In this document: in pieces, positions 39,450 through 55,985 of the stretch
Layout of the letters: every line of letters begins with the position of its first letter
Numbering within the stretch: the first letter of the stretch is position 1
Source: Octopus vulgaris
Lineage: Eukaryota
Length of the DNA: 64,000 nt
Assembly: GCA_951406725.2 (NCBI GenBank)
Contig: OX597829.1
Span: 25,854,001-25,918,000, forward strand
Direction: 5' to 3'
Translations under genes and position numbers: made by a program
Notes under the pieces: model-generated
The model's input: only the letters and a program-made list of their open reading frames with translations
Database searches by the model: none
What the model was told of the DNA's origin: nothing

Positions 39450-41130
39450 CCAACTTTATGGTTGGATCTTCCCAAAGCTTACACAAGCGTGCCCCAAAGG
39501 GTACTCTAAAGTACATTGGAGTGCTATCAAGTACCAAAAGCAGTAGTCAAACCCACAATGTCGCACATGGTTTCTCTGCAAATGAAGTTCATTATGGGCA
39601 ATTTCATCACTAAATGGCAGAGACTGGAGATGGACATTATGGCAGGGTGCCCAATTTCCGTGGTGCTATTTGTGGTGGTTATGAACTTAGTGGTAAAGGT
39701 GGGAGAGAGGTAATCGAGAGGTCCGGAAATTGATGAAAACACTGGAAAGTTGCTTTCCAGGGCCTTCATGCATGACATAACACTCATGACACTTTCATTC
39801 GAAGGGGTACAGCGGACACTGAGCTCGCTGGAAGAGATGGCCACAGGGTCAAGAATGCAAAAGCCCGAGTATCATCAAAAAAAGGAGGAAAATGACATCC
39901 TCAGTATTCAGAGGTCTGGGATTCAAACACCCAAGAAAAAGGAGTTCGATGCCTTGGGAAAAACTACGATCATACCCTTAATGATATTGGCAAAATCGAA
40001 GAAAAGTAAACCCCAACTTGATAACCGGCTGAGAATAGTGAATAGAAGCCAGCTACTTGAAAGGTTCAGGGTATGGTGCGTCCTGTATGGTATCATGCCC
40101 AGACTGCAGTGGCCACTGGGATGGCTAGGACTTGGTAACTACAGCACCAAGTGGTAGAAAAAGACCAGTATCAGGAATAAGAAAGAGCTGATAGTGCAAA
40201 AAATAGATTCAACAGAGGAGGGCCACCGGGTGAAAGCTGTACCGTTTGCTCACCAGGGACAAAGAAACAGTAGGATTAGGCACCTGAGCGCCCTATGTCC
40301 AGGAAGGAACTATGAAACTCTGACCAGAAAGATTGACCTTCCTCCATCGTCTTGTCGCTGACCTCTTGCCAACTCCAAATAACCTTAAAATATGGGACAA
40401 AGAAGAAAACCCATCCTGCAAACAGTGTGGAGTAACTCTTTGCACCCTGAACCACATTTTGATCGGATACCCTAGGGTACTGGGAAAAGGTCAATGCAAG
40501 TGGAGGTATGACAAGGTCCTTACAGAAATCGACAAGAGGACAGACCTGCGAATGATTAAGACTAACAAACTCCAGCCGTTACCACCCAAGAGTATCAGGT
40601 TTTTGAAGAAGTGTGACAAGGCTATTAAGACAAAAGCTATGGCGGGGAACCTATTTTCTATTTTGCAGCCATCCTCAGACTGTGAGAGGCATGTGGACAT
40701 GAAAGGCAGTCTCATCTTCCAAGAGGATATGGCGGTAACTTCATTGCGACTAGGCACGTTTTTGTACTCCAGGAGAACACAAACAATCATCGTGGTCGAA
40801 CATAGGCTAGACTCAATATTTCAACTATCAGAAATTGGACGATGAGGATCTTGTCGAGGGATGTCACACGACCTCATTCTCTAGTGAAGTTGGCTGTCGT
40901 GGTCTTCCACTTGCAACGGTGCGCTATTTCCTGCAAATGATTGGTCTGGAACTCAAACAACTGGAAAAAAAAAGCCACCAAGGAGATAGGCATGGCAGCT
41001 GAAACCAGCTCAAGGTGGCTATTGTTGATAAGCAACCACAAATGATAGTATTCCGCAGACGAAGACTAATTCAGTCCTTGCTGTCCCACTCAGGTAAAGC
41101 GTACAGGCTAAGAAGTAAAACGCTTATGAC
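39450..41130 (+). pseudogene. Decayed RLE-type non-LTR retrotransposon (Hero/R2-group-like): RT, zinc knuckle and restriction-like endonuclease remnants
   Basis: WLDLPKAYTSVP, IMAGCPISVVLFVVVMN, AFMHDITL, YGIMPRLQWPL, LPTPNNLKIW..CKQCG..TLNHIL...KWRYDKVL, VTSLR...IIVVE, EVGCRG. Confidence 0.88.
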
Positions 41131-46569: not shown

Positions 46570-47730
46570 GAGATGATCGTGAGGACAGAGCTCTCAAGCA
46601 CCTCCTCCTTAGGGTTCTGTCAGAGGCAACTATCTGCTTTCCTGCTGTATTCTCAAAGATGACCAACTGAAACTATGAATATTATCCAACCATCTCATTC
46701 TTGAGCTCAATTTCAAGAATCTGTTATGCGAGTCTTTCCTGCGACATTCTAATCATATGTCCGTAGCAACGAAGCTGTGATCTCACAATGCACAGAAGTA
46801 GTGACTCGACCTGATCTCCAAGCTTCGCATCCTGTCGAGTGATGTTACTTGTATTCAAGATCGCACTCTTTCGATAATTACCCTACATTCATGACTTCCG
46901 GTGAGGGTAGGAATGAAAACCAGATTGAAGATAGAGAGAACTGGGCATTTTTACAATCATCACACCTTCTGAGGATTAAATGCTGAAGCTGACGTATTGT
47001 GCGAGCATCTGCAATTCTAGAATCCGGTTCAACCGCCTGTCTTCTATCATTCGTAAATATGACTCCGAGATACTTAAACACCACAACTTGTTTCAATGAT
47101 GTTCTACATATATGCAAAATGTACTGGGAAGACATTCTAGAGAGGACCAATATCTCAGTCTTCGCAACACTAATTCTCGTCCCTGCCTTGCAGCACTCGG
47201 CAGCGAATCCATTTAGTGCATGCTGAGAATCACCTCATGAGCCAAATTGCATCATATCGTCTGCAAATATCAACCGACCGATCCTACATCCACAACGGCT
47301 GCATATGTCGATCCAGCTCATAAAAATTATGAAAAGGGGACATGCCAATATATACCCCTGTCGAATTCCAAAACCCACGTTGAAAGATTTCGGCTGTGTA
47401 CCATTTACCCGAAAGCAAATGTCTAGGCGTTCGTATAGGGACTTCATGGCAACCAAAAGTTGCCCATTAATTCCAGACTCCTATAAAACTTAGCATAGCA
47501 TGTTCCGCAGGCTTTACGAAATCTACAAAGAAAGCGTATTCCTCTTGACACTATTCCCACGATTTCTCGAAGACACGCTGTAGAGTGAAGATCTGGTCGG
47601 TTGTGTTGCATCCAGAACGGAAGCCACACGTTTCTTCAGCTAGCTTGGGTTGGACAATTTCCCTACTCTCTTTCCTAGAAATCTTGCGTAGCCTTTACCG
47701 AGGCGGCCCAAAAAGGATATTCCTCTACAA
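46570..47730 (-). pseudogene. Decayed LINE reverse transcriptase fragment (RTE-like)
   Basis: FNVGFGIRQGYILACPLFIIFM, LIFADDM, LKQVVVFKYLGVIFT; many frameshifts. Confidence 0.85.
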
Positions 47731-50984: not shown

Positions 50985-51085
50985 ATATACATATATATAT
51001 ATATATATACACACGCATACATACATACATCCATACACACATACATACCTACGTGAATGCATGCATGCATGAATACATACATACA

Positions 51086-51116
<31 letters not shown>

Positions 51117-51118
<2 letters not shown>

Positions 51119-51640
51119 GGTGGCTGCGCCCTCGTTATCGAGTATGGCCATTGCACGAAGCTTAATCAATGTTGTTATCGTGCAATGCCTGTGCAAGATT
51201 TTTTAAAGTGAGGAAAGGCTGTGCACTGAGCCATAATCCGAAAAGAAAAACAAGTCAACATCATCGGTAACCCCTGAGCCGCAGGTTTTATGTCGGAATT
51301 ATCCCAGTTACCTGAGTTATCTTCTCCTAGAAGGATGCCCTAACAAAGGCTAGGAGTCCTTCACTCCCAATGGTTTAACCGCGCGATCGGGTATTCAGTC
51401 CGATTATTTCTATGTCCCCGCGCATGATACAGCCTTAAGACATTTATTGAATGGCCATTGACTCTCAAGAGTTCCTCCGCCCTTTGACGGGTTTTGTTTT
51501 TCATCCCGCAGGGTGTCCAATAAACACCCTCCTCACCAAGCAAGCTTGGTGGGGTTGCCGGTTTAGTCGCCGACGACCCGACCATACAACAGGTTGTACT
51601 GGGTTACATGTTACCAGTAGCACTCGAAAGTGACCTGACA
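51117..51640 (-). mobile_element. Non-autonomous RTE-like retroelement (5' UTR fused to 3' end) in (TATG)n
   Basis: Minus GGCATCCTTCTAGGAGAAGATAACTC resembles the recalled RTE 5'-UTR motif; no ORF; (TATG)n on both sides; 10-bp stem near the 3' end (51149-51158/51178-51187). Confidence 0.65.
51558..51635 (-). ncRNA. HDV-like ribozyme fold (partly decayed) at element 5' end
   Basis: [GGTCAC]..27 nt..[CCAGT][ACA]ACCTGT[TGT][ATGGTC]GGG[TCG]TCGG[CGA]CTAA[ACCGG] matches the order P1-P2-P3-L3-P3'-P1'-J1.1/4-P4-J4/2-P2'. Confidence 0.65.
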
Positions 51641-51738
51641 TATATGCATACGTACATACATACATACATACATACATACATACATACATACATACATACA
51701 TACATACATACATACATACATACATACGTACGTACATA

Positions 51739-52128
51739 GGCGTAGGAGTGGCTGTGTGGTACGTAGCTTGCTTAAGGCGGCGAGCTGGCAGAAACGTTAG
51801 CACGCCGGGCGAAATGCTTAGCGGTATTTCGTCTGCCGTTACGTTGTGAGTTCAAATTCCGCCGAGGTCGACTTTGCCTTTCATCCTTTCGGGGGTCGAT
51901 AAATTAAGTACCAGTTACGCACTGGGGTCGATGTAATCGACTTAATACCTATGTCTGTCCTTGTTTGTCCCCTCTGTGTTTAGCCCCTTGTGGGTAATAA
52001 AGAAATAGGTACGTAGCTTGCTTACGAACCACATGGTTCCGGGTTCAGTCCCACTGCGTGGCACCTTGGGCAAGTGGATTTGGTGGATGGAAACTGAAAG
52101 AAGCCCGTCGTATATTTGTGTGTGTATA

Positions 52129-55475: not shown

Positions 55476-55985
55476 ATACTTAAATGATAGACTTCTGGAA
55501 AGTTTTACAGATTTTTACAGTTCCAGTGATGGATTGGATCTGTAGTCTTCGAATTAGCTTTCTCCTTTCTTGTTTTGAGAAGCCTAATTTCTCAAGTTTG
55601 GTATTTAGGCAGTGTGTTACATATTCCAGTGCCCCAATAATTATAAGTATAAACTTCAACTTGTAATCTGGATAGAGTAACTGCAAATTTCTCAATAGTT
55701 TAGTGTATGTATTACCTTTTTCACTGATCTTCAACTTTACGTTAACATCCGATGGGCAGCTAATTTCCACAACTGTGGACCGTTTCTCTTCTCTATCCCT
55801 AATCATTATATCAGGTCTGTTGTGCTAACATTTTATTGCGGTCTTCCCTGGGACATTCCACCTGTACTCCTTTTTATTACGGGTGGCTATGGTTTCTACC
55901 ATACTGTGGGTTCTTATTTCTTTGTCCTCGGGATTATCCTCCTGATGGATTTCATTATAGAGCGTCTTAGTTACAACATCATGTC
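55476..55985 (-). pseudogene. R4/Dong-like LINE 3' fragment (restriction-like endonuclease)
   Basis: HNRPDIMIRDREEKRSTVVEISCPSDVNVKLKISEKGNTY...IIIGALEYV (PD..E..K REL motif). Confidence 0.85.

Follow-up and report, generated by a model that had tools for sequence, protein, structure and literature searches.

On the minus strand of the 64,000-nt stretch of Octopus vulgaris DNA analysed here (the window; assembly GCA_951406725.2, contig OX597829.1), positions 51117-51642 hold a young element without an ORF, derived by internal deletion from a 4.2-kb RTE-type LINE and made of about 510 nt of 5' UTR followed by the last 49 nt of the long form. The explanation that best accounts for the whole, with a probability of roughly 0.8, is that this deleted form is copied in trans into (TATG)n tracts and that its first 201 nt, the 5' module, adopt a conserved fold that is not that of an HDV-like ribozyme. 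A preliminary description had placed such a ribozyme (P1 GGTCAC/ATGGTC, catalytic C51566) at the 5' end, cutting before G51635 and freeing the element from read-through transcripts, a proposal that now appears highly improbable.

The features are collected in Table 1. Element positions (nt) are counted from window position 51640 on the minus strand, the window coordinate being 51641 minus the position up to nt 410. No long ORF is present in any reading frame of the 524-nt element, as had been claimed, and no second copy was found within the 64-kb window. Relative to its family, the window copy lacks 27 nt between 51231 and 51230 and another 5-6 nt near 51199. A TT/TTAA microhomology marks the point at which LINE nt 510 meets the last 49 nt in the short element.

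Table 1. Coordinates of the short element, its flanks and the structures proposed for its 5' module
Feature	Positions in the window	Strand	Remarks
Whole non-autonomous RTE copy	51117-51642	-	family length about 556 nt
LINE-derived 5' part	51164-51640	-	88.6-95.1% identity to 5' ends of long LINE copies, e.g. L198, L204, L208
Internal-deletion junction, TT/TTAA microhomology	51162-51165	-	about 3.6 kb removed, including the whole ORF
3' UTR end of RTE family A, 45-49 nt	51117-51165	-	89-100% identity to LINE 3' ends, mostly at least 95%; would be the template end for reverse transcription
201-nt 5' module	51440-51640	-	common to family A, the short element and young family B
(TATG)n tract 5' of the element (target)	51643-51737	-	read in the sequence; upstream flank a microsatellite in 68 of 74 copies with intact terminus
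(TATG)n tail and target tract 3' of the element	51020-51116	-	
Predicted three-way junction	51590-51637	-	closing stem CAGGT/ACCTG, 51637-51633 with 51594-51590
Hairpins of the three-way junction	51632-51621 (length-variable); 51619-51597 (TACTGG/CCAGTA)	-	predicted
Predicted hairpin GTCGG/CCGGC	51557-51574	-	takes the P2' strand of the HDV-like fold, C51566 in the loop; double changes may be CpG decay
Hairpin CACCAAG/CTTGGTG	51534-51551	-	A-U, G-U, G-C series between subfamilies
Long-range helix, 51521-51516 with 51451-51446	51446-51521	-	encloses hairpins 51508-51488 and 51472-51461
HDV-like fold of the preliminary description	51558-51635	-	no support beyond the window copy

A genome search with the short element returned 1166 candidates, of which 40 were scored and 30 fetched; choice by score biases these 30 toward full-length copies. 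They measure about 556 nt, differ from the column majority by 2.3% on average, have sharp ends and sit in (TATG)n or (TA)n tracts. Exact matches to a 24-mer at nt 87-110 number 1447 in the genome. Among the first 90 of these on contig C1, sampled by position rather than score, 60 carry the junction of the short element, and from this proportion about 960 exact-match copies are implied. The total should exceed that estimate, probably reaching a thousand or more.

The long partner was reached from the 3' end. When contigs were aligned to one copy, the last 50 nt were covered more deeply and showed a loose end, and a 25-mer drawn from it has 1226 exact matches in the genome. All 30 loci taken from these matches run into the 3' end of the short element, 29 over 41-49 nt and one over 18 nt, and where long enough they continue upstream into reverse transcriptase (RT) and C2H2 fingers. 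When 29 long LINE regions were extended upstream, eight started at the first base of the element in the same orientation and three more at nt 5, 25 and 138; in another three the 5' part was wholly or partly inverted, and 15 lacked it. This long form, family A, is 4.0-4.3 kb in length; its 5' UTR takes up about 600 nt, and a single frame encodes endonuclease, RT and C2H2 zinc fingers. It is a partner sharing both ends, as the preliminary description had called for, and its coding part reads as a single, broken ORF. None of four long copies translated has an intact frame, so an active family-A master has not been found.

The family-A protein is 27-36% identical to other single-ORF elements, which we take to be RTEs from familiar motifs, and 23% identical to a CR1-like one in pairwise comparison. 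The RTE-type label accordingly follows from the single-ORF endonuclease-RT-C2H2 build, as in RTE-2_OV, together with those motifs, and is best read as a probable assignment. Other candidate partners were set aside: the top RVT_1 matches (CR1-like, one LTR-type and other RTE-type families) have no ends in common with the short element, and the RTEs bearing DUF6451 have nothing in common with it. A Dong/R4-like partner, considered on account of the microsatellite flanks, differs at the 3' end, and a Vingi/Ingi partner, also considered, was dropped when family A was found. Family A has also produced a second, independent internal-deletion family of about 600-620 nt of 5' end and about 75 nt of 3' end (L263, L337, L383, L251; also L268, L361). 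In four family-A copies (L159, L191, L197, L214) the 5' UTR is inverted relative to the body, as twin priming would give.

The 5' part of the short element is collinear with the LINE 5' UTR from base 1, its 3' part is the LINE 3' end with its tail, it has no ORF, and it forms an amplified family of its own, with the same junction in the 60 of 90 sampled loci. It is therefore a bipartite non-autonomous RTE in the sense set out in PMC5786205. The claim that it is a non-autonomous parasite of an RTE-type LINE agrees with this, while its description as promoterless and as excised from read-through transcripts found no support. The term SINE-like does not hold in the strict sense: collinearity begins at the first base, leaving no separate small-RNA head, and Rfam gave no tRNA, 5S or 7SL-derived match for the element. 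The short element is likely copied in trans by the family-A protein into (TATG)n tracts. A short RNA would be made from its own 5' end, the family-A protein would bind that RNA in trans through the 3' end and tail common to both, and insertion would proceed by target-primed reverse transcription, a course suggested by the established biology of non-LTR elements.

What the 5' module does is a separate question, and the proposed ribozyme deserves a full hearing. Every string quoted for it lies on the minus strand: GGTCAC (51635-51630), CCAGT (51602-51598), ACA, ACCTGT, TGT, ATGGTC and GG, then TCG-TCGG-CGA, CTAA with its C at 51566, and ACCGG (51562-51558), giving the order P2-P3-CC-P1'-GG-P4-CTAA-P2'. 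The two competing hairpins mentioned with it (CACT-TTCG-AGTG; TACTGG/CCAGTA) are also present. Yet just 1 of 30 copies completes the fold, and it does so by way of an uncommon C>T change at 51586: the P3 pair A44-U55 needs T there, and C stands in 28 of 30 copies and in 83 of 84 context-matched loci among 120 examined. The P2 mismatch had been attributed to CpG decay of the window copy, an explanation contradicted by A at 51600 in 29 of 30 copies and 76 of 77 matched loci. A single decayed copy, it would seem, can complete an HDV-like pattern through a rare mutation, which may serve as a warning.

A set of 100 copies was divided into seven groups, with 30 copies from the short family, 12 from young A, 9 from young B, 7 and 11 in two groups of old A type, and 20 and 11 in two of old B type. 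P1 carries a C11-A56 mismatch in all seven and has five pairs in each, two of them G-U; P3 carries an A44-C55 mismatch in all seven, and C45-G54 is also broken in both old A-type groups. P2 has an A41-C81 mismatch in five groups and is perfect, with A-T at that pair, in the two old A-type groups. P1, P2 and P3 are intact together in none. The P1.1 pairing of CC with GG, P4, and the C and A of J4/2 are compatible with the sequence of all seven groups, with CC, GG and CTAA the majority in each; they do not covary, and rival helices use the same bases. Two-sided changes between group majorities in the model's pairs occur at CpG sites exclusively. Two of the outcomes that the preliminary description had named as telling against itself were observed: family majorities leave P1, P2 and P3 unrestored, and most copies run 5' of the site.

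The motif order does occur somewhat more often than expected by chance. A permissive descriptor, fitted to that order, accepts 1 of 30 copies, or 22 of 30 with one P3 mismatch allowed. Under the same two settings, dinucleotide shuffling of the first 110 nt gives 6 and 29 acceptances in 2000 trials, and shuffling of the entire element gives 14 and 67 in 300; the descriptor also accepts two unrelated cores in other parts of the window. HDV-like ribozymes have an L3 of 7-8 nt with a conserved pyrimidine-CC...G pattern, and two descriptors with stricter L3 patterns gave no match to the 6-nt L3 seen here. Across 56 aligned copies, with P1 left out of the count since the aligner mis-registers the 5' hairpin, pairing is kept in 77.5% of cells for the proposed P2, P3, P1.1 and P4 (score 0.112, reached by 15 of 500 shuffles) and in 92.9% for three rival helices (score 0.218, 0 of 500), both structures having been chosen on the sequences tested and CpG decay inflating double changes at 69-82. 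In ViennaRNA, which considers nested folds without pseudoknots, the proposed P1 and P2 have a pair probability of 0.0, a three-way junction is preferred, and the nested halves of the HDV-like fold come to +4.8 and +1.7 kcal/mol, the rival fold to -17.9.

Searches for a related or different catalytic core were equally unrewarding. At the gathering threshold Rfam returned nothing for the window or for five loci, and none of its ribozyme families (twister, hammerhead and others) was matched at E up to 10 in three modules; a first E-value scan had been dominated by microsatellite matches. An HDV-like core with L3 of up to 44 nt yielded no fold common to five subfamily majorities, the one weak candidate, present in four groups, having a different P1 in each and two G-U pairs in P3. 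No P1 built from the flank is common to the copies. Likenesses to twister and hammerhead (GAGGAGGG; CGGANGA-stem-CAA), noted by eye against the consensus sequences, were rejected, as key positions differ and Rfam gave no match. At 51479-51458 on the minus strand, CGGA-N-GA, a covarying hairpin and CAA follow one another with the spacing of a hammerhead core if N is free, three key bases differing from the consensus. On the sequences compared, the HDV-like fold as drawn is without support. Among R2 ribozymes, flawed pairs in P1 and P2 are tolerated, and a P3 mismatch occurs in one (PMC3774820); since single flaws of this kind are tolerated, a small residual chance is left to the proposal.

The ends of the copies bear on the same point. 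Ninety loci were surveyed by position, and nine were dropped as belonging to two old duplicated fragments. Of the remaining 81, 58 carry element sequence 5' of the proposed cleavage G at nt 6, two start at that G, and the remainder start further in or are rearranged, so that the expected pile-up at GGTCAC does not appear. A cut before G6 cannot have made most copies, because C4-A5, which are not tract bases, would be lost. Nor does the G lie within a few nucleotides of the boundary, which is at 51642, seven bases upstream of G51635: an intact terminus is kept by 74 of 111 loci, of which 71 have T at position -2, and the base at -3 is variable (G 34, T 22, A 16, C 2). A candidate target-site duplication was seen in 1 of 30 copies, microsatellite flanks masking duplications.

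A sharp-looking 5' end could also arise with neither promoter nor ribozyme, if host read-through supplied the RNA and reverse transcription or second-strand priming halted at the (TATG)n border. Most copies do lie in (TATG)n on both sides, and 5'-truncated copies likewise join at ATG or TGT microhomologies (nt 32-35, 42 and 50-53). Yet in 22 of the 74 intact termini the junction reads T-TATGT, out of register with the tract, and on balance we consider an origin of this sort rather doubtful.

The bases claimed for the ribozyme have another use in the folds we favour. The predicted three-way junction would sequester the 5' strands of the proposed P1 and P2 as well as L3. Its length-variable hairpin (nt 9-20) stays paired at lengths of 10, 12, 23 and 24 nt, and the neighbouring hairpin at nt 22-44 is invariant while 4 of its 11 loop bases vary. 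Further 3', the graded series in hairpin 90-107 concerns pair 95-102, and in hairpin 169-180 the sequence differs between groups with pairing kept, as judged by eye. Best supported is the long-range helix (nt 120-125 with 190-195), in which four of six pairs are changed on both sides among five subfamily majorities; it pairs in 89% of cells over 44 natural copies, and with two neighbouring helices beats 500 of 500 shuffles. These figures come from five related subfamilies and from helices chosen on the same sequences, and CpG decay yields false double changes. A second long-range helix (56-62 with 184-190) is possible in all groups and was rejected, since it does not beat shuffles (134 of 500), as was a loop pseudoknot (29-38 with 51-60), compatible with the sequences and free of double changes. 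RNAalifold on a gappy alignment (A2) returned no pairs in the 3' half of the module. Taken together, the comparisons suggest that the first 201 nt probably form a conserved RNA of several helices, at odds with the proposed HDV-like ribozyme.

It may be asked whether the 5' 90 nt are instead the silenced relic of an HDV-like ribozyme whose P1 once lay near nt 28-29 (51613-51612) and which is now shut by a 27-nt leader pairing with the P2 strand and L3. ACCATG/CATGGT (nt 29-34 with 55-60) and P2 CCAGT/ACTGG are both perfect in two old A-type subfamilies, and every group has a leader complementary to CCAGTA and ACCTG. The same two subfamilies, however, lack P3, position 28-61 is a T-C mismatch in every group, and none of the 81 surveyed copies starts at nt 28-29, one long LINE copy (L188) starting near nt 28. 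A relic of this type is accordingly improbable, and the conserved multi-helix RNA is the reading carried forward here.

The module has a history of its own. A protein search with the family-A endonuclease brought up a second family at 52-56% identity, family B, in which 10 of 12 loci begin with the 201-nt module and then pass into their own UTR. Over the ORF the two families are about 64% identical in DNA in the best stretch and 54% identical in RT protein. Over nt 1-195 the young B module is 95.5% identical to the short element and 94.8% to young A, as against 83% to old A-type and 76% (76.2%) to old B-type modules. The young modules form one clade (97/98) in an unrooted tree whose bootstrap is not fully settled, and old B-type modules continue into family-B bodies at 80-90% identity. 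Young B thus appears to have replaced its own older module with an A-type one, and recently. The direction, from A to B, is suggested by distances, the tree being unrooted and its bootstrap not settled. At about nt 201, a template switch or a recombination would have brought the A-lineage module into family B; in this family the junction is found 3 nt beyond the point where the long-range helix ends. Two further observations belong here. An old ORF-less element of family-B type, about 1.2 kb long with a SINE-like insert, stands directly behind the tail of a family-A LINE (L179:1-1236, the same as L274). On contig C31, eight loci (L216-L223) in local duplications carry a version of nt 4-176 at 82% identity before running into unrelated sequence.

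Replacement of the module in family B is left unexplained by host read-through. The module may be an internal promoter that sets the transcription start, combined with a cis-acting RNA for the RTE protein or for translation. We give this about an even chance, and a role of this kind would explain why the module is kept whole and exchanged as a unit. Another thought is that the module is a self-cleaving RNA of undescribed fold, cutting at about 51643/51642, in or beside the (TATG)n target. The sharp 5' boundary and a covarying multi-helix domain kept and exchanged whole are in keeping with that. Against it, an internal promoter predicts a sharp end equally and no known catalytic core was found, even with L3 of up to 44 nt; the G found at position -1 in 11 of 74 copies could be templated by a cap, (TG)n targets explaining it as well. 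We judge self-cleavage of this kind unlikely. The broader claim that the 201-nt head is an undescribed folded RNA device of RTEs, possibly self-cleaving at the (TATG)n border and captured whole by another RTE family, is similarly a long shot.

Other repeats lie nearby or were met in the searches. At 51758-52024 a 233-nt SINE-like insert (51775-52007) is nested in another repeat, as read directly in the sequence, and a perfect 17-nt direct repeat on its flanks (52024-52008 and 51774-51758) is likely its target-site duplication. The 3' fragment of a LINE of the restriction-like-endonuclease type, which we take to be Dong/R4-like, occupies 55483-55824 on the minus strand; its tail is (TACA)n, and the genome has 49199 candidates for it. 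Two decayed LINE fragments are present as well, one at 40324-40842 (+) with what are presumably a zinc knuckle and a nuclease-like motif, the other at 46881-47234 (-) and presumably RT-like. Elsewhere in the genome, a young LINE family with many open frames of 948-949 aa and an (ATT)n tail (L057, L067-L069, L073-L074) is presumably CR1-like.

The short element, about 510 + 49 nt, amounts to a minimal template supplied by nature for an RTE that strongly prefers (TATG)n, and may be relevant to two-RNA RTE gene-writing systems (PMC13708176). Its module bears on how RTE elements start their RNA. The five subfamilies offer natural covariation for a 200-nt 5' domain, and models of promoter, structure and self-cleavage could all be tested on a short construct.

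Our literature search found no paper on the short-element family or its 5' structure; repeat databases lay outside it and may already name the family. The element is a new family in this genome, internally deleted RTEs as a kind being well known. RTE-2_OV of Octopus vulgaris (PMC9115989) has a single ORF with endonuclease, RT and a C2H2 finger and a 5' UTR of about 600 nt, as family A does. Three primers for RTE-2_OV, 19-20 bases long, differ from families A and B at 4-8 positions, and A and B are therefore distinct from it. Bipartite non-autonomous RTE LINEs already include RTE-N2_Lch, RTESINE1/2, MAR4_MD and WALLSI3 (Kojima 2018, PMC5786205). Like the short element, these consist of the 5' and 3' ends of an RTE LINE, with an internal deletion, no ORF and a true LINE 5' end. 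The accessible part of the same paper reports no structure for such 5' ends, predicted ribozymes being cited there for some RTE families.

The R2 SIDEs and R2/R1 hybrid SIDEs of Drosophila (PMC3414825) and NARTc/RIME of trypanosomes are likewise internally deleted and about 0.5 kb long. In that group there is mobilisation in trans and movement of a 5' module between element types, the ribozyme module of the hybrid SIDEs having moved between R2 and R1; for the short element, copying in trans is our inference. In SIDE ribozymes, compensatory changes preserve P1-P4 and cleavage occurs in vitro (PMC3414825), whereas the helices proposed for the short element contain fixed mismatches and its copies begin upstream of the site. 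The HDV-like ribozymes of R2, Dong, R4 and drz-Agam-2 (PMC3774820, PMC4908430) share with it the CC..GG..hairpin..CTAA spacing near a non-LTR 5' end. The short element differs from them in a P3 of 1-2 pairs, a 6-nt L3, a P1 with three Watson-Crick pairs, stronger rival helices on the same strands, and 5' ends that do not fall at P1. Plant RTE LINEs offer a parallel to family B, since they too have switched 5' ends while the ORF lineage persists (bioRxiv 10.1101/2022.11.04.512097). There, the new 5' UTRs are mostly non-homologous, the change stays within one subfamily, and they are read as promoters, whereas in family B a homologous 201-nt folded domain has apparently crossed between families 54% identical in protein, with the break just past the last helix.
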